A DNA stretch of 64,000 nt from an uncultured Candidatus Saccharibacteria bacterium (lineage in GTDB: Bacteria > Patescibacteriota > Minisyncoccia > Phycocordibacterales > UBA6899): NCBI GenBank assembly GCA_964469335.1, contig CAYXYK010000003.1, positions 196,674 to 260,673 of the forward strand. Direction: 5' to 3'. Below, in pieces: positions 3,615 to 17,493 of the stretch (within the stretch, counting starts at the first letter, position 1; each line of letters begins with the position of its first letter). The notes below the pieces were generated by a model. That model was not told the DNA's origin, made no database searches, and worked only from the letters and a program-made list of their open reading frames with translations. The position numbers were made by a program, and so were the translations under genes.

Positions 3615-4988
3615 ATGGCAGCAAAAACAAAAAAAGCAGTGAAGAAGGCAGCACCAAAGAAAGCAGCGAAAAAGGCCGCAAAGCCTGCAAAGAAGCCGGT
3701 GGCAAAGAAAGCTACCAAGGTAGTTACAAAGAAGCCTGCAAAGGCCTCTAAAACCCCTAAAAAGGCTGCTAAACCAGAGAAAAAGGCGAAGGCAGGAAAA
3801 CCCACCAAAGCCACAAAGGTCGCTAAAGCGGCTAAACCTGAGAAAGCAAAGAAGCCCGAGAAGCCGATCAAGTTCGCCCCGCCTCCAAAGAAGACCATGA
3901 CCAAGGAGCGCAAAGCACTTGAGCACAAGCTCACCGTTCTTCTCAATAAGGGTCGCGACCGCGGCTTCATCACTTTCGACGAGATCCTGCGCGTCTTCCC
4001 GGAGATCGAGAACAATGTCGACTTCCTCGAAGAGATCTACGAGCGCATGGGCGTGATGGGTATCGACATCCTCGAGTCAGGCGGTCTTCTCGACGCTGAC
4101 CCGGTCGAAGAGCCGGTCAACACCGGCGCGTCACGCAAGTATCTGACGACCAAGTCTTCACCATACGACTCGACCCAGATGTACCTCCGCGAGATCGGTC
4201 AGTATCCACTCCTCGCTGCACGCGACGAGCGCGAACTCGCTCAGCGCATTCAGGCAGGTGACCCGGAGGCAAAGAATCTCTTGGCTCGTGCCAACCTCCG
4301 CCTCGTGGTCTCGGTCGCAAAGAAGTATGTCGGCCGCTCACCTGACCTCACGCTCCTCGACCTCATTCAGGAAGGAAACCTTGGCCTCTTCCGCGCCGTC
4401 GACAAGTTCGACTGGTCAAAGGGCTACAAGTTCTCGACCTATGCGACCTGGTGGATCCGCCAAGCGATCACCCGCGCGCTCGCAGACCAGAGCCGCACCA
4501 TCCGCATCCCGGTCCACATGGTGGAAACGATTGCGAAATACAAGCAGGTGGTCCGCCGCCTCACCCAGGACCTCGGCCGCGAGCCGATGGCCGAGGAAGT
4601 CTCGACCGAAATGGGCATCGACGTCGAGCGCGTCCGCATCATCGAGAACATCGACCAGGATACCGTTTCACTCGAGAAGCCGATCGGCGACGACGAGGAC
4701 AAATCAACGCTTGGAGAGTTCATCGCCGATGACAAGATTCTTTCACCGGATCAGGAGGCATCGCGTAGAATTCTTGCCGACCAGGTAGGGGAGATACTCG
4801 GCGACCTTTCACCAAAAGAACGCAAAATCCTCGAAATGCGTCACGGTCTCCTCGATGGTGTGACTCATACGTTGGAGGAAGTTGGTAAGGAGTTTGGCGT
4901 GACCCGCGAACGTATACGCCAAATCGAAGCCAAGGCGCACGAGAAGATTAGGCAACACGGGAACATCAATAAGCTCAGAAGTTACTAG
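3615..4988 (+). CDS. rpoD: Primary RNA polymerase sigma factor (sigma-70 family) with a Lys/Ala/Pro-rich histone-H1-like N-terminal extension
   Basis: Regions 2-4: [50 protein letters not shown], and C-terminal [24 protein letters not shown]. First ~95 aa are KKAAK/AKKP repeats. Confidence 0.9.
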
Positions 4989-5734: not shown

Positions 5735-6445
5735 ATGGATGAAACTTCGAATACCGTGACGAATACGGACAGCGCACCGCCGAGTGCCGAAGAGACCGTA
5801 GTCGAGCCAGTCGCAGCGGAAGTTGTGTCCACCGTCGCGCCTGCCTCAACAGGCGAGCCAGAGGTTGCCGATGTGCCCGTCATACAGGTTGAGGCTCCTG
5901 CGCCCGAAGCATCGCAACCGGAAGCGAGTGGAAACGAAAATACGCTCGATAGTGAGCCTGACCCAGAAACCCCTGCACCTACTCCAACGCCTCAAGTCGT
6001 CGAACGCATCGTCGAAAAATTTGTCGAAAAAGAAGTGGTGAAAGAAGTGCCAGTCGAAAAGATCGTCGAACGCATCGTCGAGAAACCTGTTGAAGTGATC
6101 AAAGAAATTCCCGTCGAGAAAATAGTCTACAAAGAAGCCGAGCCGACGGATGCATCGCTGCGTGCCTATCTCGCGAGCTTCTTAAGGAGAGTTGGGCCGA
6201 AGGGGAGAGCCGCTCAGCACGAGCGTGCTCAAAAGAAGCGCGAAGCTGTACTCAAACTCTTTGACACCCATGAGCATGTCACTCACAAACTCGTCATGGA
6301 GACACTCAAGTTCACTGATCGAGATGCATCCCGCATCCTCGCCACCCTGCGCAGCGAAGGCAAGATAACGCTCCATGAACCCTCAGCTAGCCACCACGGC
6401 GGCAAAGGTACCTTCTATTCGAGATCGACTTCCGCAACGAAGTGA
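5735..6445 (+). CDS. Acidic tandem-repeat protein, hypothetical
   Basis: N-terminal acidic, proline-rich region, then repeated VEKIVERIVEKPVEV-like units, then a basic C-terminal domain. No family recognised. Confidence 0.5.
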   Translation: MDETSNTVTNTDSAPPSAEETVVEPVAAEVVSTVAPASTGEPEVADVPVIQVEAPAPEASQPEASGNENTLDSEPDPETPAPTPTPQVVERIVEKFVEKEVVKEVPVEKIVERIVEKPVEVIKEIPVEKIVYKEAEPTDASLRAYLASFLRRVGPKGRAAQHERAQKKREAVLKLFDTHEHVTHKLVMETLKFTDRDASRILATLRSEGKITLHEPSASHHGGKGTFYSRSTSATK

Positions 6446-6610
6446 GGAAGGCGAGTCGTGACTGGCATCTCCGGTGGGCGATACTTCTACGAAAAAGCTA
6501 AACCTGGTGTTGGGGGTCTTCCCACAACTTGGCTTATACAAAATCGCCGTCGGATACGAAGTAGGGAAACACACCCTCAAAGGGAACCCCACCCCCTAGG
6601 CCACCCCAGA

Positions 6611-6640
6611 GCCCCAGAACGTACTTCTGGGGCGCTTTTG
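6611..6640 (+). terminator. Putative intrinsic terminator
   Basis: ccccagaa-cgtac-ttctgggg hairpin followed by cgcttttg, about 165 nt downstream of the 5735..6445 gene. Confidence 0.45.
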
Positions 6641-6836
6641 CAAATACCGCTCAAGGGCACTCCTCGCTGCCGCCTCGCACTGCATCCCAAATTCCGCGTC
6701 CCACGATAAGTAGGTGAGACACGGTTCTATTGTCTAAGCAATTCGTTTGCTTTAGTTAAATGAAATGCTAGGATAATCCGTATTACAGCCAGTGGCCCCT
6801 ATGTAGCTCTCTGACCGTCCAGATTATTTAGATTTT

Positions 6837-9035
6837 ATGCATCCCGCAAAAAAAATACTAAAATCATTCAAAATTGATGCACGTACAGTCATTAATCTTG
6901 GTCGTGATAGCATAAAAAATCCGACAACTGCGATTTTGGAACTAGTAAAAAATAGTTATGATGCAGACGCGACTATTGTTGAAGTAGTAATTGGAGAAAA
7001 TGATATTCGCATAGCAGACAATGGAGTGGGAATGACTGAGTCGCATCTTGAAAAAAATTGGCTACGTATTGGTTATTCTGAAAAGCGCAAAGAAAAAATA
7101 AGTAAAAAGTTCCGTCGTAAAACTGGGGAAAAAGGTATAGGGCGGCTCTCCACTGATAGGCTGGGCGAGTATCTTTCTCTTCGCACTAAGGCAGAAAATT
7201 CAAGCCCGCTTCAGATGAGCGTAGATTGGGAAAGTTTTAATGTTGAAGGAAAAGAGCTATCACAGATTCCAGTTGAAATCATTGAAATCTCCTCACTCGA
7301 AATCCCCGCATCTAAGAAAGGAGCGGGAACGGAAATCAATATTTCCCGCCTTCGACAAAAATGGAATAAAGCAGATATTGAGCAACTCTACAGTGAACTA
7401 ACTGGGCTCCTTTCGCCATTTGCTGGGACATCTGATTTTCAGATTTTTTTCCACAGTTATTTAGTAGAAGAATTAAATGGACCAGTTAGATCTTCATATT
7501 ACGAAGCAGCTGAGGTAGCAATAAAGGCAAAATTCTCCGGAAAACAAAATAAGATTGAGTATCAAATTATAGATATAAACGCAAGGAAAAAAAGTAAACC
7601 TAAGAAACAACACATAACATGGGATCAACTTTCCCAAAGATTAAATGCATCTGATATCGGCTTCAATCCTGATTTGGTATGCGGCCCAATTTCCCTAGAG
7701 ATTCTTTATTTTGGTAGAACCAAAAGTAATCCTTTGCTGGAAGAAAAGGGATTTACTCTTGCGGGGTTACGTCGTTTTCTTGATAAAAATCAGGGGATTA
7801 AAATATACAGAGACGGCATAAGTGTTAAGCCTTATGGTTACAACAATGAACCAGCTGGAGACTGGTTAGGGCTTGCGCACAGAAAAGAGCGTGACCCCGC
7901 TGGACTCCTGAGACCCTCATATAAGGTATCTTCATATCAGCTTGTTGGAGCTGTCTCAATGAGTAGAGACTTAAACCCACAATTGAGAGATGGAGCTTCT
8001 AGAGAGGGTTTTGTTGAAAATGAAGCCTTTAATGATTTACGTGCTCTTACTTTATCTTGTGTCACCTTGCTTGAAAAATATAGACACGAGAAGGCGGTAA
8101 AAGAAAAAAAGCTCTCGAAGTCTAAAAAAGGCCTATTGGAAGATGTGGAAGGGTATAAAGATGACCTTGAGAGTTTTCAGAAAAAACTTGAAGAATTAAA
8201 GAGTAGGCTAGAGAATGACAAAACAAAAGACAGTAAAGAATCTGTTGCTGAACTAGCAGAGGTTATTCAGCAAACAGAAGCGACAAAAAAAAGGGTTGAA
8301 GAACTTCTCGATAATAATCGAGTTCTGAGCGGTCTTGCCACTGTTGGTATCGCTGCTGCTGTCTTTGGCCACGAAACTCAAACTGCCGTCTCGCTTTTTA
8401 AATCCAGTGTTTCTGCGGCACAATCCTTCCTTACTTTGCGATCTGGTCCGAATACAAAAAAAGCACTGGAGCAGCTGACTGCCTCCTTGACATATGCTAA
8501 ACAAGTCTCTTCTTGGGGTGCTTTTGCTATGGCTCGTGTACGGAAAGATAAAAGAACCCGACAAAAAATAAATATTAAGAATACCATTGAAGCAGTACTC
8601 GATGAGGTTGAGGATGCTTTTGGGGTGATAAAAATTGAAATAATTAGAGAACTAAAAGAGGTCAATGCAAAAGCCTTTGTTATGGACATAGAATCAATTG
8701 TTTTGAACCTTATGACCAATGCATATACTGCGTGTACCCATTCCGCACACTCCCGGAAAGTGAGAGTAGAACTTACTCAAAAGAATGAAGGAGGGGTTGA
8801 GGGCTTTGAAATAGTAGTAGCGGATAGTGGCCCAGGGGTTGATAAAGCAATTTCGGATATGATTTGGGAGCCGCTTTATACCACAAAAAAGGACAAAACA
8901 GGCAGAGAAGATGGGACAGGCTTGGGGCTTACAATAGTCAAGACAACAGTAGAAGAATTAGGCGGAATTCGTGACGTTAACAAGGATCCTAAACTCAAAG
9001 GAGCTCGATTTCGCGTCTGGCTCCCCACTAATTAG
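6837..9035 (+). CDS. Cytoplasmic GHKL ATPase / histidine-kinase-like protein: N-terminal MORC-type HATPase_c_3-like module plus C-terminal HisKA-like and HATPase_c modules
   Basis: N-terminus ILELVKNSYDADATIVEVVIGENDIRIADNGVGMT...GEKGIGRLS (Bergerat-fold N and G1 boxes). Coiled coil around aa 420-500. Candidate H-box FGHETQTAV. C-terminus NLMTNAYTA...VVADSGPGVD...GTGLGLTIVKTTVEELGG (N, G1, G2 boxes). No transmembrane segment. Confidence 0.75.
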   Translation: MHPAKKILKSFKIDARTVINLGRDSIKNPTTAILELVKNSYDADATIVEVVIGENDIRIADNGVGMTESHLEKNWLRIGYSEKRKEKISKKFRRKTGEKGIGRLSTDRLGEYLSLRTKAENSSPLQMSVDWESFNVEGKELSQIPVEIIEISSLEIPASKKGAGTEINISRLRQKWNKADIEQLYSELTGLLSPFAGTSDFQIFFHSYLVEELNGPVRSSYYEAAEVAIKAKFSGKQNKIEYQIIDINARKKSKPKKQHITWDQLSQRLNASDIGFNPDLVCGPISLEILYFGRTKSNPLLEEKGFTLAGLRRFLDKNQGIKIYRDGISVKPYGYNNEPAGDWLGLAHRKERDPAGLLRPSYKVSSYQLVGAVSMSRDLNPQLRDGASREGFVENEAFNDLRALTLSCVTLLEKYRHEKAVKEKKLSKSKKGLLEDVEGYKDDLESFQKKLEELKSRLENDKTKDSKESVAELAEVIQQTEATKKRVEELLDNNRVLSGLATVGIAAAVFGHETQTAVSLFKSSVSAAQSFLTLRSGPNTKKALEQLTASLTYAKQVSSWGAFAMARVRKDKRTRQKINIKNTIEAVLDEVEDAFGVIKIEIIRELKEVNAKAFVMDIESIVLNLMTNAYTACTHSAHSRKVRVELTQKNEGGVEGFEIVVADSGPGVDKAISDMIWEPLYTTKKDKTGREDGTGLGLTIVKTTVEELGGIRDVNKDPKLKGARFRVWLPTN

Positions 9036-9039
9036 TGCT

Positions 9040-9738
9040 ATGGAAAAGATGAAGTTGGCAATAGTTGACGATCGAAAGGAAACAAGGAATGTCGTTGTTG
9101 ATGTTATTGCTAATGCACTCGACAATCTTGAGATGACTGGCAAATGGTCTGTTTTGGGGGTACCACCCCTGTCTACATTAAAGGAGTACCCAGAGTGGAT
9201 AATTAGGGAAAATGTAGGTATTTTAATCGTGGATGAAAGATTGGGAGAAGTTCCAAATGCCTCAGGCAAGATTGCGGATTACAAAGGGAGTGATTTGGTG
9301 GCATTGCTTCGAACACAGTATAAAGAAATGCCTATTTATGGTGTTACTGCGTATCATGCTGACGACTCCCTTCAAGAGCATTTCTCTCTTTTCGACGATG
9401 TTGTTGAAAGAAGTGACTTCGCAGCAAAAACAGTCCAGTATATTGGCAGATTCCTGAGAACATATCAAAATTTTTTTGAAGAAAACGAGAAAGAGCTCAC
9501 TGAGCTTTCAAAGATTTCAAAAAAAATTGCCATTGGTACTGCAAGCAAGTCTGAAAAAAATAGGGCAGAGGCGATACAGAGAAATCTCGAGATACCAGTT
9601 AGTACCATTTCTATTGCAAATAGAAAAGAATGGCTTGACGACTATGAAAAAATATTAAATATATTTACTGAAACGCAAAATAAAGCGAACAAAATTTTGG
9701 ACAAAAATAAAACAAAAATAAAAGATAAGAAAAAATGA
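9040..9738 (+). CDS. Receiver (REC) domain protein with a lysine-rich helical C-terminus
   Basis: KLAIVDDRKE (acidic pocket), ILIVDERLGE (candidate phospho-Asp) and YGVTAYH (conserved Thr). Start set at ATG 9040, 4 nt after the upstream stop; the ORF track gives 8971 as an alternative start. Confidence 0.55.
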   Translation: MEKMKLAIVDDRKETRNVVVDVIANALDNLEMTGKWSVLGVPPLSTLKEYPEWIIRENVGILIVDERLGEVPNASGKIADYKGSDLVALLRTQYKEMPIYGVTAYHADDSLQEHFSLFDDVVERSDFAAKTVQYIGRFLRTYQNFFEENEKELTELSKISKKIAIGTASKSEKNRAEAIQRNLEIPVSTISIANRKEWLDDYEKILNIFTETQNKANKILDKNKTKIKDKKK

Positions 9739-10385
9739 AATGGTCATTAATTCACAAAAAAGCAAACCCAGCACTTGAGAAGCATGGTTATCGCGATCAT
9801 CGAGTGAGGGAATTTTTAAGACAAGAAGGACTTTTGCGTTGTGCATATTGTGCTGTTCATGAGAATGCTGTCGGGGGAGTCCAGGCATTTCATATTGACC
9901 ACTACAAACCCAAGAAAAAGTTTCCTGCTTTAACGAATTCACTCTCCAATCTCTTTTATGTTTGCCCCATCTGCAATCGATTTAAGTCAGATGATTGGCC
10001 TGCAAATCCTCGCCCCACGTTTAGTAATAGCTCATATCCAAATCCGTCGAAGGTAGATTACAGCAAGCTGTTTGACGTTAGTTCTAGTGACTATGTGGTT
10101 AGTGGCCTGTTTGTGGCCTCAAAATATATAGTAGAAAAGCTATACCTTAATCGACCTCAGTTGATTTTGGAGCGGCGCTACTATTACCTAAACCAAAAAT
10201 TTGAATATCTGAGTTCGAATTATTTACCTATAATTAATGGTTTGAGTTCCATTGGAAATAAAGAGGCAATTGAATGTATAGTAAAACTTGCTGAAATCAG
10301 TGGTAAACTCAATGAACTACATTCTGCCTTAAAAACAATACCGTTATATGAAGTAGCAGATGTGACAAAGAGGAAAAAGAAATGA
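9735..10385 (+). CDS. HNH family endonuclease (candidate restriction endonuclease)
   Basis: CAYCAVHE ... HIDHYKPKKK ... YVCPICNRFK: a Cys4 zinc-finger HNH motif. The start overlaps the upstream stop (ATGA). Confidence 0.7.
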   Translation: MKWSLIHKKANPALEKHGYRDHRVREFLRQEGLLRCAYCAVHENAVGGVQAFHIDHYKPKKKFPALTNSLSNLFYVCPICNRFKSDDWPANPRPTFSNSSYPNPSKVDYSKLFDVSSSDYVVSGLFVASKYIVEKLYLNRPQLILERRYYYLNQKFEYLSSNYLPIINGLSSIGNKEAIECIVKLAEISGKLNELHSALKTIPLYEVADVTKRKKK

Positions 10386-12019
10386 ACTTAAAAAAGGAAA
10401 CAGGCTCATATTACACACCACATATCCTATCGGATTTCATGGTTTTTCACCTGTTTTCAGAATATAAATTTCCTAAAAATATAAATATTTTGGAGCCTAG
10501 CGCCGGAGACGGAGTATTCTTTGATTCGCTTTTTAATAATCAAGTTTTTAAAAATAAGTTTAAACTTCCCAAAAAAATAATCATTGATGCTGTTGAAATT
10601 GAAAAGGTAGCGATGCGTCATCTGGAAGTGAAAACGAGAGATTATATTTCAAAATCAAGTGAAATAAACTACACCCAGGAGGATTATTTGAAATACCAGC
10701 ATAAGAATAAAAAGAAGTTTGATTTGGTTTTGGGGAACCCACCTTACATAAAAAGTAGTCTTTTAAATAAAACTCAGATTGAGTTTTGTGAACAAATCCA
10801 TAAAACTGCCGGGCTTGATAATAAGAAAATTAAGAATATATGGACAAGTTTTTTGATTGCTGGCGTAGACTCTCTGAATAAAGACGGGGTACTCTGCTTC
10901 GTACTTCCTGCTGAGTTGTTGCAGGTCATATATGCTAAAGAACTAAGAAACTATCTACGAGATAATTTTCAGAGAATTGAGATTTTTACCTTCAACGAAC
11001 TTATTTTCCCAGATATTGATCAAGATGTTATCGTTCTTATTTGCGCAAAAAAGCAAAACGCGGGTGTTTCTTTCTATCACGTAGAAAAGCTTGATGATCT
11101 AAAAAAGCCAACATATGTTAAGGAAAATGATAACATCCATCGCCAAACTCTAGATAAATGGACTAATTACATTTTATTAGACAATGAACTTAAGTTTTTA
11201 GATTCTCTAAAAACTCGTTTCTCTCCAATCAAAGACTATTGTCGAGCGGAAGTTGGTATTGTTACTGCAGCAAATGATTATTTCATCGTTAATAAAGAAA
11301 CTATTGAGAAATATCACTTGCAAAATGTTGCAAAGCCAATTTTGCAGAAAAGTTCTTTGATGCCAGCAACAATTAACTTTACAAAACTTGACCAGAAGAG
11401 CATTTCTAAAAAAAACAAGCCTTCATACTTTCTTAGATTTGAAGATGTTAATAAAAAAGTATTTTCAAAAGAAATACAAGAGTATCTAAAGATTGGCGAA
11501 GGTCGAAAAATAAACGAACGATATAAATGCAAGCTTCGAAGCAATTGGTACCACGTACCCTCAGTTTGGATTTCTGAAGGGTTCTTTACGAAGCGCTCAA
11601 ATTTATTTCCTAGGATGGCAGTAAATGATGCTAAGTCATACTCTACTGATGCATTTTATAGAATTAAAATGAAGGAACAAAACAATGTTAAAGATCTTGT
11701 ATTTTCATTTTACAATACTTTGACGTTAATTTTTGCTGAGCTAGAGGGACGTTACTATGGTGGGGGAGTGCTCGAGCTAACTCCTAATGAGTATAAGAAT
11801 TTATCTATACCATATTGTAAAAATATAAAGGATTCTACATTTGCAAAGTTAGATAAAATGTTGAGATCTAAGACAGATATAAAAGAAGTTCTAAACTATA
11901 CAGACAAAATAATTTTAAAAGAGAATTACAAAATGTCTGATCAGGAAATTTCCAGGTTGTCTAAGATTTATTCAAAACTTGTTACTCGGAGATTAAAAAA
12001 TAGAAAACTTAGTTTTTAG
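10382..12019 (+). CDS. N6-adenine DNA methyltransferase, gamma class (Eco57I/TaqI-like), candidate Type II modification enzyme
   Basis: Motif I ILEPSAGDGVFF precedes motif IV LVLGNPPYIKS. Long C-terminal region is a likely target-recognition domain. Start overlaps the HNH stop (ATGA). Confidence 0.8.
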   Translation: MNLKKETGSYYTPHILSDFMVFHLFSEYKFPKNINILEPSAGDGVFFDSLFNNQVFKNKFKLPKKIIIDAVEIEKVAMRHLEVKTRDYISKSSEINYTQEDYLKYQHKNKKKFDLVLGNPPYIKSSLLNKTQIEFCEQIHKTAGLDNKKIKNIWTSFLIAGVDSLNKDGVLCFVLPAELLQVIYAKELRNYLRDNFQRIEIFTFNELIFPDIDQDVIVLICAKKQNAGVSFYHVEKLDDLKKPTYVKENDNIHRQTLDKWTNYILLDNELKFLDSLKTRFSPIKDYCRAEVGIVTAANDYFIVNKETIEKYHLQNVAKPILQKSSLMPATINFTKLDQKSISKKNKPSYFLRFEDVNKKVFSKEIQEYLKIGEGRKINERYKCKLRSNWYHVPSVWISEGFFTKRSNLFPRMAVNDAKSYSTDAFYRIKMKEQNNVKDLVFSFYNTLTLIFAELEGRYYGGGVLELTPNEYKNLSIPYCKNIKDSTFAKLDKMLRSKTDIKEVLNYTDKIILKENYKMSDQEISRLSKIYSKLVTRRLKNRKLSF

Positions 12020-12050: not shown

Positions 12051-12620
12051 ATGAACATTGTTATATTGGGATGGGGCTCTCTATTGTGGGATAAAAATAT
12101 AAATTTTGATGAAACACATAAGGAATGGCTATTCGACGGCCCAAGTTTACCGTTAGAGTTTTCTCGTGTGTCAGAATCGAGAGGAGGAGCGCTAACGCTC
12201 GTAATTGATACTCAAAATGGAACCAAATGCCAAGTTGCGTATTCTTTGAGTATCAGGAAGACACTACGTGATGCCATAAATGACTTGACCAAAAGAGAGG
12301 GAACATCAACAAAACGAATAGGTTTTGTTGATGTGCTGTCTGGTAGTATTTCAGATGACGAGATTTCTCTTGGAATTAAATCTTGGGCGAAGGAACATGA
12401 TATTGAAGCAGTAGTATGGACAAATCTGCAGAGTAATTTTTGGGATAAAGTTGGAGAGAAATTTAGCGTCGAATCTGCGGCCACTTATCTTACTTCACTC
12501 GCAGAAGAGTCAAAAATAGAAGCTCTGAAATATATTAAATCGGCACCAGAATTTGTCCAAACACCACTGAGGAAGGAGTTCGAGATAAGGTTGGCCACAA
12601 ATGAGTTTGGAGAAAAGTGA
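12051..12620 (+). CDS. Hypothetical protein
   Basis: 189-aa ORF in the AT-rich island between the two R-M modules; no family recognised. Confidence 0.45.
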   Translation: MNIVILGWGSLLWDKNINFDETHKEWLFDGPSLPLEFSRVSESRGGALTLVIDTQNGTKCQVAYSLSIRKTLRDAINDLTKREGTSTKRIGFVDVLSGSISDDEISLGIKSWAKEHDIEAVVWTNLQSNFWDKVGEKFSVESAATYLTSLAEESKIEALKYIKSAPEFVQTPLRKEFEIRLATNEFGEK

Positions 12621-12659: not shown

Positions 12660-13067
12660 ATGACTGAGAAAAAAACGGACACATACGAGACGTTAGAATT
12701 CTGGCTAGGTGATGACTGGAAGAAAATTTCTGATGAACACAAGAGGATTTTAGCAGATAAGCTTGATTCACTTACAGATACAAATTTCGAAACGACAAAG
12801 GGTTTGTTTGAAAGAATACGCGACCGTCGTGAGATTCAGGGAGTGCTCATTTTGGGCGTAGTGCTCGGTATCCTAGGAAACTTAGTTGCTAATTATCTTG
12901 ATAGATATTTCCTCCGTTTTGGCTTTGCGTATTCGCTTGTGGTATCAGTAGGTTTTATTGTTGTGTATATTATTTTGAACCGAGCATTTGATAAAGGAAT
13001 CTCATCAATGGTGAGGAGCAATCCAACCCTACGTGCGATGATCGTCGAGAAAACCGAAAAGAAATAA
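12660..13067 (+). CDS. Hypothetical small membrane protein (2 predicted transmembrane helices)
   Basis: Hydrophobic segments VLILGVVLGILGNLVANYL and FAYSLVVSVGFIVVYIIL. Confidence 0.4.
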   Translation: MTEKKTDTYETLEFWLGDDWKKISDEHKRILADKLDSLTDTNFETTKGLFERIRDRREIQGVLILGVVLGILGNLVANYLDRYFLRFGFAYSLVVSVGFIVVYIILNRAFDKGISSMVRSNPTLRAMIVEKTEKK

Positions 13068-13199: not shown

Positions 13200-15581
13200 A
13201 TGTCGCAGGAGGCATATTCTCGTGTTGTGATCGACCGAAAACTTCGTGAATCTGGTTGGGATATTGAGGATTCCCGTCAGGTTGTTTTTGAAGACCACGG
13301 AAACGCTGGTAGAGCTGATTATGTACTTAAGGATGGCTCTGGGAGGGCTATTGCACTCATTGAGGCTAAGAAACCAGAGATAGACCCCTACAGTGCAAAG
13401 AAACAGGCTTCTGATTACATAGAACTCCAGTATCCTCATGTGCGGTTTATTTATCTAGCTAACGACAAGCTAATTTACTTCTGGGATTTGGACGGAGGCG
13501 GAGACGCTCAAGTTGTCCCAGCGTTCTACTCCCAAGACGATTTGGTTCGTCGCCAGAGTGTTCGATCTCAAAATCTCGCTAAGAAACTAACAGAAGAGAC
13601 AATTCAAAAAGATTACTTCACCGATGTTGCTGACAGCGCAATCCTCCGTCCATACCAGCTCTCGGCATGGGAAACTATTGCTGATGGATATGATGCTGGG
13701 AAGCGTGCTTTCTTGCTGGAGATGGCTACGGGAACAGGAAAGACAATGCTCGCGTCTCTCATCATTTCTCGTTTCTTGCGCACAAACAACGCACAAAACG
13801 TTCTCTTTCTTGTAGACCGTAAATCACTCGCCATTCAAACCAAGAACACATTCGAGCGACTTCTTCGGGGAGTGTCGGCTGTCGGAACATACTGGGGCTC
13901 AAACAGGAAGAACCTCACGGGGTCAAACGTAGTGGTTGCCACAATTCAGTCTCTCATGCTCCACGGTGCACGTGATTTCTCGTCGGGATACTTCGACCTC
14001 ATCATCCACGACGAAGCACACCGAAGCATCTACTCCCCAGAGGCTCGTTCAGCAGTTGACCACTTCGTGGGAGTAACCAAGATTGGTCTGACTGCTACTC
14101 CTCGTGATTTCTTGAAGAATATTGACCTTGAACAGCTCAATGCAAAAGATCCTCGTAAACTAGAGCGCAGAGTACAGCGTGATACATATTCATATTTTGG
14201 TTGTGAACAAGGGGTGGCAACGTATCGCTACACGATACAAGACGGTGTGAGTGAGAAGTTTCTTGTTCCGCCAAAGTATCACAAGATGAAAACCTCGATT
14301 ACTCAACAGGCATTGTCTGACGAAGGTATAACGACTCTCGCTGACGTTGATCTCGAAGAGGGTGAAAGCATCAAAGTGAAAGACCTTGAAAAGAAGGTGC
14401 ATTTCCCTGAGCGGAATCGTCGCATGATGCAGGAATTTCTTGAACATGCAGTGCGCACACCAGACGGAGAGATCGGAAAGACACTTATCTTTGCGGTATC
14501 GCAAAATCACGCACTCGCACTAGAGAAAATACTGAATGAGCTGAAGCCCGAGTACGGAGGAAAGTTTGCAATGACCATCACTTCGCGAGTGCAGGGGGCT
14601 CATGATATTGCTAAGGATTTCTCGAAAGAGACAAGTAAGCTCCCACGAGTGGGAGTGACGGTAGAAATGCTCGCTACGGGCTTTGATTGCCCTGAGATAC
14701 TCAACATTGTTCTGGCTCGTCCAATATTTGATCCTGTGAGCTACCAGCAGATTAAAGGGCGCGGTACACGTCTGTGCCCAGAGATAAACAAAAAAGAATT
14801 TGTGGTGTTCGACTTCTGTGGTGTCGTTGAATATTTTGACGAGAAGTACGACTGGGAAGCACCAATCGTCCTGCCTCCCGTTGGTGGTGGAAATACAAAT
14901 GAGGGCGGAGCGGAGAGTGGAGGTGGAACAACATGCATAGGAATCGATGGAGAAGGAGGTGAGCCAGAAGAACGCATTTCACAAACACCAGATGTGGTGC
15001 TTTCTCGCGACATCATTACACTTCCTGAAGGTGATACGGTAGATAAAAACATGTATCGCGACGAGTGGACAAAGGCGGTGCAAGATTTCATGAGTAAGAG
15101 AGGCGAGTTGGTCGCATCCGCTCTTGAAGACGAAGATAAGGTAGAGGAGCTCATCGCAGAAATCAACGCCACACTACTCAATCAGCCCAAGCTTTACTTC
15201 AACGAGGAAAATCTCCAAATATCACACCGTATCGTCGCTGGCGTGCGAGAGTTCTTCCTTTCTGCTGTAGGAAAGCAATCGCTCCCAACCCGCGATGAAC
15301 AGCTCACTGGGTTCAAGCAGGCATTGGTCAACAAGTTTGCCCAATCAGATAAGCCAGAAGCCACCTTCAAGAGAGCCGTTATGGGGGAGTTCATTGCAGA
15401 TCAAGCTATTACAAACGACCACTTCCGAAAGTCTGTTATCGAGAAGCCAACACTCGACTTTTTGCGCTGGGACGAGTTTGAGCAAGCTTACTCGGTTACA
15501 GAGTGGCTCAATGTTTTCACAAAAGATGAGCTCACTGAATTGGTTTCGGATATTTCAAATGCACGCATTCTGAAGATTTAA
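13200..15581 (+). CDS. hsdR: Type I-like restriction enzyme R subunit (N-terminal PD-(D/E)xK nuclease plus SF2 DEAH helicase)
   Basis: N-terminal HsdR_N-like segment VVIDRKLRESGWDI...ADYVLKD...IALIEAKK. Helicase motif I LEMATGTGKT, motif II IIHDEAHRS, motif VI QIKGRGTR. At 793 aa it is short for a canonical HsdR. Confidence 0.75.
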   Translation: MSQEAYSRVVIDRKLRESGWDIEDSRQVVFEDHGNAGRADYVLKDGSGRAIALIEAKKPEIDPYSAKKQASDYIELQYPHVRFIYLANDKLIYFWDLDGGGDAQVVPAFYSQDDLVRRQSVRSQNLAKKLTEETIQKDYFTDVADSAILRPYQLSAWETIADGYDAGKRAFLLEMATGTGKTMLASLIISRFLRTNNAQNVLFLVDRKSLAIQTKNTFERLLRGVSAVGTYWGSNRKNLTGSNVVVATIQSLMLHGARDFSSGYFDLIIHDEAHRSIYSPEARSAVDHFVGVTKIGLTATPRDFLKNIDLEQLNAKDPRKLERRVQRDTYSYFGCEQGVATYRYTIQDGVSEKFLVPPKYHKMKTSITQQALSDEGITTLADVDLEEGESIKVKDLEKKVHFPERNRRMMQEFLEHAVRTPDGEIGKTLIFAVSQNHALALEKILNELKPEYGGKFAMTITSRVQGAHDIAKDFSKETSKLPRVGVTVEMLATGFDCPEILNIVLARPIFDPVSYQQIKGRGTRLCPEINKKEFVVFDFCGVVEYFDEKYDWEAPIVLPPVGGGNTNEGGAESGGGTTCIGIDGEGGEPEERISQTPDVVLSRDIITLPEGDTVDKNMYRDEWTKAVQDFMSKRGELVASALEDEDKVEELIAEINATLLNQPKLYFNEENLQISHRIVAGVREFFLSAVGKQSLPTRDEQLTGFKQALVNKFAQSDKPEATFKRAVMGEFIADQAITNDHFRKSVIEKPTLDFLRWDEFEQAYSVTEWLNVFTKDELTELVSDISNARILKI

Positions 15582-15582
15582 T

Positions 15583-17493
15583 ATGGACACCATCTCAACA
15601 TACAAAAGCAGAATAGACGGGCTGATGAATATTCTCTTTGGTGCAGGGGTTTCCAACCCTCAAACCATCATCGAGCAAATTAACTACTTGCTCTTTCTGC
15701 GCGCTCTCTCAGTCAAAGACGACGAGGCAGAGCTTCTTGGTATCGCCGATGAATCAGGCAAGATCTTCACGGGCAAGCTATCGAAGTACAAATGGTCAAA
15801 TCTCCTCGCACTGAACGCCGAGGATCTGTTCAAAATACTTGAGGAGTCTTATGGCGCGATTCAAAAAGAATCTGCGAATGCAACAGTAAAGCTCTTGTTC
15901 CGCAATGCCCATGTAAAGATTTTCGACAAGCCTACGCTCCGCAGGGTGCTTCACGAGATCGAGGAGTTTTCGAAGGAACTCGACACCATTGCCCACGAAG
16001 GCAACAAGGACGTGTTTGGGGATATGTATGAGTTCCTTCTCTCGAAGCTTTCCTCTGCGGGAACGAACGGGCAATTTCGCACCCCACGACACATAATCGA
16101 CTTCATGATCCGAGTACTCGACCCAAAGATTGGCGAGACGATACTTGATCCCGCTTGTGGCACGGCAGGTTTTCTTGTTGCCGCCTACCGCTATATTGCG
16201 GGCGAGTATACGAGCGACAAGATGAAGAAGGCAGGCAGTCCACGTGCAATGGACAAGCTCTCGTCCGAGGAAAAGAATTTTCTCTATAATCACATGTTCA
16301 CGGGCTTCGACAGTGACGAGGACATGATCAAGTTCGGAATGATGAACTTGCATTTGCACGGACTTACGAAATCTCATCTTGTTCGTCAAAATACGCTGAC
16401 TGATACAACTGGGTACAAGGCGAAGTTTGATGTCATTCTCGCCAACCCTCCTTTCAGTGGAAAGCTCGACGAGGAAAGCGTATCGGAAGACATTCGCATG
16501 GGGACAAAAGCGACTGAGCTTCTTTTCTTACGTTTTATGATAGACCACCTATCAAACAGAGGGAAAATGGCGGTGGTAGTGCCAGAAGGTGTGCTCTCAA
16601 GTTCTTCAAGGGCAAACACGAGGGTTCGTGAAATGTTGCTAGAAAATGGTCTATGGTGTGTCGTTTCACTTCCCAAAGGTATTTTTAATCCATATGCAGG
16701 TGTTAAAACCAACATTATATTTCTTGATAAGTTATTTGCCAGTAAGTCGAAAAATATTCTGTTTGTAACACTAGCAAATGATGGCTTTGAGCTTACTGCA
16801 CAGAGACGAGCTACGCAGAAAAATGATTTACCTGAAATATTAGAATTGTTATCAAGATGGAAGATGGACGAAAACACAGAAAGTACTCTCATAAAATCGG
16901 TCGAAAAATCAAAAATTATCGACAATGCCGACCACACTCTCTTGAAAGAGCAGTATGAAATTAACAGTAGGCACACAAAGGCAAAATACCCAATGATAAA
17001 GTTGGGAGAGCTTTGTGAAATTAAGACTGGAAAGAAGGATGTAAATGAAGGAAACCCAGATGGGGAATATCCTTTTTTTACTTGCGCCAAAGAGCCAACT
17101 CGAAGCGATAGTTATTCTTTCGACACAGAAGCCCTGCTTATTGCTGGCAACGGTGATGTTGGTGCTGTAAAGTATTATCTCGGGAAGTTTGAGGCATATC
17201 AAAGAACATATGTTTTGGTGAATTTTGAAAAAAGTGTTTTACCAATGTTCATTTATCACTATCTTGACGCGACGCTTAAACCCATTGTATCTGCACAAAA
17301 ATTAGGTAATACGATGCCATATATAAAAATGGGAATGCTATCAAATTTTGAGATATCTCTTCCGCCCCTAGAAATCCAGCAACAAATTGTCTCTGAAATT
17401 GAGAGTCATCAGCTTGCGGTAGATGAAGCCTACGAAGAAGCCGAAAGACAAAAGAGGAAAATCAAAGAGAGGATCGACAAGATTTGGGAGTAA
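15583..17493 (+). CDS. hsdM: Type I restriction-modification methyltransferase HsdM with a fused C-terminal single target-recognition domain (HsdS-like)
   Basis: N-terminal HsdM_N-like region. SAM motif ILDPACGTAGFL. Catalytic ILANPPFSG. C-terminal ~180 aa resemble an HsdS TRD plus conserved helix (LGELCEIKTGKKD ... LPPLEIQQQIVSEIE). Confidence 0.8.
   Translation: MDTISTYKSRIDGLMNILFGAGVSNPQTIIEQINYLLFLRALSVKDDEAELLGIADESGKIFTGKLSKYKWSNLLALNAEDLFKILEESYGAIQKESANATVKLLFRNAHVKIFDKPTLRRVLHEIEEFSKELDTIAHEGNKDVFGDMYEFLLSKLSSAGTNGQFRTPRHIIDFMIRVLDPKIGETILDPACGTAGFLVAAYRYIAGEYTSDKMKKAGSPRAMDKLSSEEKNFLYNHMFTGFDSDEDMIKFGMMNLHLHGLTKSHLVRQNTLTDTTGYKAKFDVILANPPFSGKLDEESVSEDIRMGTKATELLFLRFMIDHLSNRGKMAVVVPEGVLSSSSRANTRVREMLLENGLWCVVSLPKGIFNPYAGVKTNIIFLDKLFASKSKNILFVTLANDGFELTAQRRATQKNDLPEILELLSRWKMDENTESTLIKSVEKSKIIDNADHTLLKEQYEINSRHTKAKYPMIKLGELCEIKTGKKDVNEGNPDGEYPFFTCAKEPTRSDSYSFDTEALLIAGNGDVGAVKYYLGKFEAYQRTYVLVNFEKSVLPMFIYHYLDATLKPIVSAQKLGNTMPYIKMGMLSNFEISLPPLEIQQQIVSEIESHQLAVDEAYEEAERQKRKIKERIDKIWE

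Follow-up and report, generated by a model that had tools for sequence, protein, structure and literature searches.

In 2021 Bellieny-Rabelo et al. described a family of histidine kinases with a new DHp domain, HEF_HK. In 174 of the 222 proteins this domain is combined with HATPase_c_3 and HATPase_c, an arrangement designated 'group 1' (Bellieny-Rabelo et al., 2021, PMC8011034). The kinases have no membrane segments, 91.6% are linked to a receiver-like gene (Response_reg_2), and they are enriched near restriction-modification (R-M) genes. It was proposed that they derive from the paraMORCs that Iyer et al. (2008) had described, and that a MORC-like, ATP-driven module feeds phosphotransfer (PMC8011034). 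A homologue in Pseudomonas was shown in 2025 to act against phages (bioRxiv 10.1101/2025.09.30.679545). This report concerns a kinase encoded in a stretch of 64,000 nucleotides (hereafter the window) from an uncultured Candidatus Saccharibacteria bacterium (contig CAYXYK010000003.1, positions 196,674 to 260,673), together with the receiver, HNH endonuclease and methyltransferase encoded directly after it. The cassette is a divergent member of this family, and its sequence points to a role in defence.

The Pseudomonas aeruginosa system, Ambrosia, consists of five genes, AbrR-AbrA-AbrB-AbrC-AbrD. AbrR is a HipB-like XRE regulator, AbrA an N6 methylase, AbrB a protein of 747 amino acids (aa) with HATPase_c_3 and HATPase_c, AbrC a receiver described as a REC domain plus a helix-turn-helix of the winged type (wHTH), and AbrD a PtuB-like HNH protein. 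Ambrosia blocks siphophages and myophages, and each of its genes is needed; defence is abolished by each of the substitutions AbrB N40A, AbrC D60A, AbrD H60A, AbrD K83A and AbrA T72A. With reporters in the place of abrA or abrD, hardly any expression is seen at rest, and infection raises it strongly; methylation by AbrA does not protect phage. The system has been reported in Gammaproteobacteria only (10.1101/2025.09.30.679545).

Comparison with Ambrosia and other described systems

The Abr protein sequences were taken from Table S1 of the preprint (10.1101/2025.09.30.679545), AbrB being represented by its first 399 residues. The window kinase is 37% identical to AbrB over AbrB residues 12-397 (E = 2e-69), the receiver 27% identical to AbrC (BLASTP, E = 6e-12), with the C-terminal ~100 aa of the receiver outside the alignment, and the HNH protein 34% identical to AbrD (E = 2e-21). 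Residues essential in Ambrosia align with window residues: AbrB N40 with N39, AbrC D60 with D65, and AbrD H60 with H56. From the first of these it follows that N40A lies in the MORC-like ATPase and not in the ATP site of the kinase core, which sharpens the question of the signal that is sensed and of the route, transcriptional or direct, by which the output is delivered. The methylase gave a marginal match to AbrA (E = 0.029) and is not orthologous to it.

The two clusters have in common a two-HATPase kinase, a stand-alone receiver of ~210-230 aa, a PtuB-like HNH protein of ~215 aa and an N6-adenine methylase. They differ in gene order, which is kinase, receiver, HNH, methylase in the window and methylase, kinase, receiver, HNH in Ambrosia. 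The window methylase is of the Eco57I type with a C-terminal domain of its own, and belongs to another N6A subfamily than AbrA. An XRE regulator gene is part of Ambrosia (AbrR), whereas none is present at 6446-6836 of the window. The residue after beta5 of the receiver is Arg in place of Lys, and the winged helix reported for AbrC was not detected in the window receiver, either by Pfam or in an AlphaFold2 model whose C-terminus is of low confidence. Finally, the host is not a gammaproteobacterium, unlike the reported hosts of Ambrosia.

The four window genes are separated by a 4-nt gap and then by two ATGA overlaps, and they form a translationally coupled operon, one unit. The HNH protein (Pfam HNH, E = 3e-7; PADLOC PtuB, E = 1e-20) contains C36xxC39, H56, N72, C77xxC80 and N81, with H56 and N72 as the catalytic residues. 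The methylase matches M_Eco57I_C (E = 1e-38), Eco57I (E = 4e-16) and N6_Mtase (E = 9e-12) in Pfam and MTase_II in PADLOC (E = 8e-152); NPPY is found at aa 119, and the S-adenosylmethionine motif is EPSAGDG. The two GHKL modules, H-box, REC domain, HNH protein and methylase all retain their catalytic residues.

Since the kinase, receiver and HNH protein are homologous to AbrB, AbrC and AbrD, the synteny is conserved, the catalytic residues are intact, the structures fit and the context is one of mobile and defence genes, it is probable that the kinase is the sensor of a horizontally acquired, R-M-like anti-phage cassette of the Ambrosia type, in which the nuclease would be licensed via a phosphorelay. 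As far as the sequences can tell, the cassette is a homologue of Ambrosia in a new lineage. An anonymous 'ATP-binding protein' of a genome resembling those of the candidate phyla radiation (CPR) is thereby tied to a defence system so far reported in Gammaproteobacteria only.

The HEF_HK/Response_reg_2 pairs (PF19191/PF19192) resemble the window genes in their group 1 architecture, solubility, adjoining receiver-like gene, and nearby methylases and HNH or other nucleases. Neighbourhoods with C5-methylase, Vsr and HNH_2 were stressed in PMC8011034, whereas in the window clade the methylase is an N6A enzyme of the Eco57I type and the HNH protein is PtuB-like. The window kinase matched neither the HEF_HK nor the HisKA model of Pfam, HEF_HK being absent even at E <= 10, and Response_reg_2 was not matched by the window receiver, again even at E <= 10. 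Among 52 full-length kinase homologues HEF_HK was matched by 4 and HisKA by 1; among 80 proteins encoded after the kinase Response_reg (PF00072) was matched by 31 and Response_reg_2 by 3. Because a few members (4 of 52 and 3 of 80) do match the 2021 models, the window clade is best placed as a divergent branch of the HEF_HK family outside current Pfam models. An initial annotation of the window kinase, made from the letters alone, had called its architecture unusual. That claim does not stand, as the architecture is the group 1 of Bellieny-Rabelo et al. (2021) and that of AbrB. Its suggestion that a MORC-like module is coupled to phosphotransfer fits the operon context, and had itself been made before (PMC8011034).

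Likeness extends to the MORC, paraMORC and MutL ATPases with GHKL and S5 domains (Iyer, Abhiman & Aravind, 2008, PMC2292703), which have an N-terminal Bergerat fold with all ATP-binding motifs and a conserved domain next to it. In paraMORC systems operon linkage to methylases and nucleases and a patchy, laterally mobile distribution are seen as well. In contrast to these systems (PMC2292703), the window protein has a complete histidine-kinase core and a receiver partner, and no SF2 helicase partner.

Septu, which consists of the PtuA ATPase and the PtuB HNH protein, is similar in that a PtuB-family HNH protein is controlled by an ATP-using partner. The window operon differs in having a methylase and no PtuA-type ABC ATPase, with control presumably exerted by kinase and receiver instead. 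Membership in Septu was rejected, there being no PtuA-like protein in the operon.

Detocs, a defensive two-component system (Rousset et al., 2023), reportedly re-uses a phosphorelay for anti-phage signalling, with a receiver domain that gates an effector and not a promoter. Its parts are said to be a TPR-type sensor kinase, a separate buffer (Hpt) protein and a nucleoside-phosphorylase effector to which the receiver is fused, reportedly with no GHKL sensor, no HNH protein and no methylase, unlike the window cassette. Membership in Detocs was also rejected; whatever the system, the PADLOC models that matched the window kinase did so in its N-terminal GHKL domain only. More generally, no defence-system model of PADLOC 2.0 covers the kinase or the receiver, and the kinase matches only the GHKL N-termini of two type II restriction endonuclease models. 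As the system is absent from the PADLOC library, this gap is not evidence against a defence role. In NCBIfam the N-terminus of the kinase resembles the N-terminus of the BbrUII/HgiDII restriction enzymes and the C-terminus resembles generic kinases, all far below the cut-offs.

The kinase and its two ATPase modules

The presence of two GHKL modules in one kinase-like protein, the central observation of the initial annotation, is borne out by Pfam, with all of the motifs that it quoted in place. Residues 30-150 match HATPase_c_3 (PF13589, E = 2e-23) and residues 617-731 match HATPase_c (PF02518, E = 6e-25), both far above the curated cut-offs. The N-terminal motifs are E35-L-V-K-N39, D61-N-G-V-G65 and G97-E-K-G-I-G102, with T165 just downstream of the domain span, and the C-terminal boxes are N624-L-M-T-N628, D663-S-G-P-G667 and G693-T-G-L-G697. 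The H-box, F-G-H512-E513-T-Q, had gone unnamed, and the operon partners (receiver, HNH nuclease and methylase), which define function, had been missed.

Profile searches of the PDB, with a query profile built from 38 homologues, matched residues 21-86 to MutL, PMS2 and MORC3 (E = 1e-8 to 1e-5), which together with HATPase_c_3 upholds the MutL/MORC-type Bergerat fold proposed for the N-terminus. Residues 509-729 aligned with the DHp and CA core of Thermotoga HK853 (E = 3e-20), in agreement with the proposed histidine-kinase core, and the C-terminal part of the protein would accordingly qualify, by homology, as a bona fide class I (HisKA-type) kinase core. No transmembrane segment was found, the highest Kyte-Doolittle mean over 19 residues being 1.29 with its peak inside the H-box helix, so that the expected cytoplasmic location and lack of a membrane sensor region hold. 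Nor is the protein a standard sensor kinase, as had been stated: the GHKL and middle domains replace a ligand-binding sensor.

The AlphaFold2 model of the kinase (pLDDT 77, pTM 0.68) contains, from N- to C-terminus, the GHKL domain, a mixed alpha/beta middle domain to ~aa 395, long helices and the CA domain. The long helices are at 396-426, 433-459 and 464-532, the last bearing H512, and the return helix is at 540-568. Structure prediction and Foldseek comparison had been suggested at the outset. In Foldseek searches of the PDB the top matches of the C-terminal half were HK853, CpxA and ZraS, and the N-terminal half with the middle domain aligned with the N and M domains of Hsp90 and GRP94 over 468-502 columns. 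The ~300 aa between the modules had been described as unassigned sequence and a coiled coil. The coiled coil is present in the modelled helices; the unassigned stretch turns out to be a conserved mixed alpha/beta domain (aa ~150-395), a candidate S5/transducer-like domain of the GHKL module.

Conservation was examined in an alignment of 81 homologues with 26-71% identity. In the N-terminal ATPase N39, D61, G63, G65, G97, K99, G100 and G102 are invariant, E35 is found in 80 of the 81, and T165 (motif IV) is conserved. H512 is present in all 81 and an acidic residue (E or D) at 513 in 80; N624, N628, G693, G695 and G697 are again present in all, and D663 in 75. Within the middle domain G334, D342, W343 and R389 are invariant, and Y324 and P332 nearly so. 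The coiled-coil linker is poorly conserved in sequence and constant in length. Because the motif residues are invariant across the 81 aligned sequences, both nucleotide-binding modules and the phospho-acceptor H512 are under selection.

These counts bear on the possibility that the kinase serves instead as the motor of a restriction complex, a role that Iyer et al. (2008) proposed for paraMORCs, and loops DNA or translocates it on behalf of the HNH nuclease, with the kinase-like C-terminus and the receiver-like partner as structural relics that take no part in phosphotransfer. A motor would be consistent with the invariant N-terminal GHKL residues, with the location in that module of N40A, the one AbrB substitution known to abolish defence, with the occurrence of paraMORC1 with HNH genes in R-M contexts (Iyer et al., 2008, PMC2292703) and with the altered G1 box, N-S-G-P-P, of a Bacteroidota subclade. 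However, H512, N624, N628 and the G2 box are all retained in 81 of 81 sequences, and the receiver keeps its Asp in 80 of 80 along with the acidic pair, Thr and Lys/Arg, which is not the pattern of a relic. Moreover, AbrC D60A abolishes defence (10.1101/2025.09.30.679545). A motor of this kind is very unlikely.

In that Bacteroidota subclade the G1 box (residues 663-667, nt 8823-8837) is changed from D-S-G-P-G to N-S-G-P-P. The change of D to N was found in 6 of the 81 sequences and that of the second G to P in 5, with the N box, G2 box and H512 unchanged. In these variants the kinase domain may bind ATP differently.

Distribution of the core genes and output of the proposed phosphorelay

A word-index search with the kinase gave more than 1,500 full-length matches of 42-72% identity from many phyla, with generic database names such as 'ATP-binding protein' and 'sensor histidine kinase', and an exhaustive HMMER search gave full-length homologues amounting to 1,232 representatives of 50%-identity clusters at E <= 1e-30. 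When one genome per species was scanned, at least 582 matching loci were found, of which 80 were fetched. The closest kinase relatives are in metagenome-assembled genomes (MAGs) of Candidatus Paceibacterota. The order kinase, receiver, HNH was seen in 31 of the 31 closest loci, 22 of which also have an Eco57I-like methylase. The core triad is present in Paceibacterota, Bacteroidota, Gemmatimonadota, Chloroflexota, Verrucomicrobiota, Cyanobacteria, Actinomycetota, Bacillota, Dependentiae and Elusimicrobia, as well as in two archaeal MAGs.

Complete genomes of Marinicella, Chitinophaga and Sphingobacterium carry the kinase, a protein of ~220 aa, an HNH protein of ~215 aa and a methylase; the element that bears the Chitinophaga cassette also has integrase and relaxase genes. 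The neighbourhoods of relatives include integrase or relaxase genes, AbiH and other defence genes. A kinase homologue was found on 73 plasmid records, 56 of them conjugative, with annotations such as 'N-6 DNA methylase - ATP-binding protein - hypothetical - hypothetical' and 'M subunit - ATP-binding protein - response regulator - MBL fold metallo-hydrolase'. With at least 582 loci, 1,232 clusters and 73 plasmids, the kinase-receiver-nuclease core is far more widespread and modular than published. The wider phyletic spread, the swaps of nuclease and methylase modules and the arguments on the mechanism of output are what the present analysis adds.

Generic database names ('sensor histidine kinase', 'ATP-binding protein', 'CheY-like') would also suit an ordinary housekeeping two-component system that lies beside an unrelated type II R-M pair. 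The synteny already contradicts such a view, since linkage to nuclease and methylase persists over dozens of loci that span phyla, with overlapping reading frames. The genes are, in addition, located on islands and plasmids, and the homologous Ambrosia cassette works as a unit and needs each of its genes. A housekeeping role is scarcely credible.

The gene that follows the receiver encodes an HNH protein in 46 of 68 loci and a metallo-beta-lactamase (MBL)-fold protein in 14. Replacement of HNH by the MBL-fold protein (~330-345 aa) was seen mostly in cyanobacteria and Chloroflexota, and also on a Burkholderia plasmid, where the gene is annotated 'MBL fold metallo-hydrolase'. The methylases that flank the core include members of the N6_Mtase, Eco57I, MmeI_Mtase and C5 DNA_methylase classes. 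Such free swapping around a conserved core argues against a sensor that reads one specific methyl mark. Of 10 relatives tested, 8 have a small Cro/C1-type helix-turn-helix (HTH) gene directly upstream of the kinase.

In 12 relatives the kinase gene is followed by one for a protein of 354-405 aa, in which a canonical receiver (D-D, D, T, K) is fused to a conserved domain of ~250 aa. The invariant motifs of this domain are G-D, P-x-C-D, Q-x-K and R-x-G-x-P, and it is not like a DNA-binding domain. Pfam gave no match to it, and a PDB profile search matched the REC part only. Since at least 8 of the 12 fusion loci have no adjacent same-strand gene at the nuclease position, the fused domain may be an effector.

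One further relative was found on the Klebsiella variicola plasmid NZ_CP063918 (L084:4998-7268), where the kinase homologue is annotated as three coding sequences ('ATP-binding protein', 'hypothetical protein' and 'ATP-binding protein') and is matched by tblastn in three pieces. The cluster otherwise has the Ambrosia order, methylase-kinase-receiver-HNH, and the kinase is probably a decayed or frameshifted copy.

The canonical residues of the window receiver are D10, D11, D65, T103 and R124. Residues 1-130 were modelled by AlphaFold2 as a (beta-alpha)5 fold with pLDDT ~90, and Foldseek matched the model to the receiver domains of HupR, PhoP and NtrX (TMt 0.73-0.79). The low-confidence model (pLDDT 45-78) of the C-terminal region consists of three helices, 35, 13 and 40 residues long, and lacks a beta wing. 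No Pfam DNA-binding domain was found in the receiver, the best Pfam match being Response_reg at only E = 0.029, which is not significant. The position of D65 is Asp in 80 of 80 proteins encoded after the kinase, and the acidic pair, Thr and Lys/Arg are also conserved. The conserved Lys after beta5 is Arg in the clade of the window receiver (R124, nt 9409-9411); among the 80 orthologues K is found in 38 and R in 35.

On the favoured reading, that of an Ambrosia-type sensor, the N-terminal GHKL and middle domains would form a clamp whose dimerisation is driven by ATP, in the manner of MutL, MORC and Hsp90; the infection cue to which it responds would most plausibly be a state of DNA or nucleoprotein. 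The resulting conformational change would run down the coiled coil of ~130 residues into the DHp helices. The CA domain would then phosphorylate H512, from which the phosphoryl group would pass to D65 of the receiver. Dimerisation, transmission through the coiled coil and phosphotransfer are proposed from the established behaviour of GHKL ATPases and class I kinases. The phosphorylated receiver would license the HNH nuclease, in this lineage more likely by direct control at the protein level, and the methyltransferase would be the modification arm.

Following the model published for Ambrosia, the same cassette could instead have a purely transcriptional output, in which the phosphorylated receiver is a DNA-binding activator of otherwise silent methylase and nuclease genes at infection, and the nuclease then cuts DNA bearing the methylase's own mark. 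This is in line with several features of Ambrosia: the abrA and abrD reporters are barely on at rest and strongly induced by infection, AbrC is described as REC plus wHTH, and methylation by AbrA gives phage no protection (10.1101/2025.09.30.679545). The small Cro/C1 HTH genes that precede the kinase in many relatives suggest tight transcriptional control in the family, and full-length regulators of the RcsB type are among the Foldseek matches of the receiver, but with a root-mean-square deviation of ~14 A. In the window, however, the receiver has no detectable DNA-binding domain and its three C-terminal helices have no beta wing; the four genes form a single overlapping operon, receiver and HNH included, so that the kinase and receiver would be co-expressed with the nuclease that they should induce; no XRE gene is found upstream; and 12 relatives fuse the receiver to the ~250-aa domain. 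For these reasons direct licensing of the nuclease is preferred, though not strongly, and a purely transcriptional output is considered unlikely. The receiver-effector fusions and the lack of a DNA-binding domain in the window receiver provide testable grounds for doubting it.

A number of points weigh against the favoured Ambrosia-type reading and its direct output. The support for Ambrosia is one preprint on a Pseudomonas homologue that is 37% identical, and the window cassette is known from its sequence. The infection-induced abrA and abrD reporters and the winged helix of AbrC favour transcriptional control, and the C-terminal helices of the window receiver, modelled at pLDDT 45-78, leave room for a small DNA-binding bundle. 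N40A, the only AbrB mutation examined, lies in the N-terminal GHKL domain. With a methylase that is not orthologous to AbrA and with the XRE regulator missing, regulation may differ from that of Ambrosia. The middle domain is only a candidate for an S5 fold, and K331, the candidate conserved (ATP-sensing) Lys of this domain, is found in only 45 of the 81 sequences.

A more specific form of the favoured reading can be put forward tentatively, as a doubtful proposal. It holds that the paraMORC-like GHKL module is the true input domain, an ATP-dependent clamp that reads the state of invader DNA or nucleoprotein and signals by His-Asp phosphotransfer to the receiver, which then switches on the HNH nuclease, or an effector domain fused to the receiver, by direct action on the protein and without transcription. 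If this were true, Ambrosia-like cassettes would constitute a pan-prokaryotic family of 'phosphorelay-gated restriction', found in CPR bacteria, many other phyla and some archaea, in which the methylase module and the nuclease module (HNH, MBL or fused domain) can be exchanged.

Table 1. Features of the window cassette and of variant loci in relatives (L, related locus; coordinates of L entries are those of the locus).
Feature	Position (nt)	Strand	Description and basis
Upstream intergenic region, presumed promoter region	6446-6836	+	Only implausible short open reading frames
ParaMORC-histidine kinase (AbrB-like)	6837-9035	+	732 aa, cytoplasmic; single reading frame
N-terminal GHKL ATPase domain, HATPase_c_3	6924-7286	+	Pfam; profile matches to MutL/PMS2/MORC3; invariant motifs
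Conserved mixed alpha/beta middle domain	7287-8021	+	aa ~151-395; AlphaFold2 secondary structure, conserved residues
Coiled-coil linker	8022-8324	+	aa 396-496; AlphaFold2 helices
DHp (HisKA-like) helical hairpin	8325-8540	+	Phospho-acceptor H512-E513 (codons 8370-8375); conservation, HK853 alignment
CA domain with N, G1 and G2 boxes	8685-9029	+	Pfam HATPase_c
Receiver protein (AbrC-like)	9040-9738	+	232 aa; REC fold aa 1-130, all-helical C-terminal ~100 aa
PtuB-like HNH endonuclease (AbrD-like)	9735-10385	+	216 aa; Pfam HNH, PADLOC PtuB
Eco57I-family N6-adenine DNA methyltransferase	10382-12019	+	545 aa; Pfam, PADLOC
MBL-fold gene, second after kinase	L043, L049, L056, L057, L059, L060, L066, L069, L070, L072, L074, L077, L078, L083; also L085:7769-8776		
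Receiver fusion genes	L053:7851-8954, L054:4316-5386, L055:9193-10272, L062:9181-10257, L064:3149-4363, L065:9196-10257, L067:9122-10300, L068:9108-10304, L071:9089-10276, L073:9051-10202, L080:5206-6366, L082:9127-10305		

Island context and neighbouring genes

The guanine-plus-cytosine (GC) content of the four cassette genes is 32-40%, compared to 55-57% in the neighbouring dnaG and rpoD genes and 52% in the rest of the window, and the cassette region is a horizontally acquired defence island. Scans for tRNA genes and Rfam families, as island borders or RNA elements, found nothing. No credible open reading frame for an XRE or C-protein gene was found on either strand of 6446-6836; an 83-aa open reading frame at 6458-6709 was considered as an upstream XRE gene and rejected, being basic, of low complexity and without an HTH. 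A scan for promoters and terminators gave fewer sites than shuffled sequences and was uninformative.

Directly downstream, in the same low-GC island, lies a type I R-M pair. The first gene (13200-15581) encodes an HsdR-like helicase-nuclease of 793 aa, and the second (15583-17493) a protein of 636 aa in which HsdM is fused to an HsdS domain with a single target recognition domain. Two small genes separate the cassette from the type I system, 12051-12620 (189 aa) and 12660-13067, whose product of 135 aa has a strongly hydrophobic segment. Neither had a match in Pfam, NCBIfam or PADLOC or a homologue in 83 related loci, and on the latter ground both were rejected as parts of the system.

On the other side of the cassette, 5735-6445 encodes a protein of 236 aa. 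The N-terminus of this protein is acidic and rich in Pro and Glu, short repeats like V-E-K-I-V-E-R form a run, and the C-terminal segment resembles a small helical DNA-binding domain; its family matches are weak and sub-threshold. As its GC content (55%) is host-like, this gene is probably outside the island. The gene at 3615-4988 encodes an RpoD-like sigma factor in which the conserved regions are preceded by an N-terminal tail of ~100 residues, nearly all Lys, Ala and Pro, of histone-H1-like composition.

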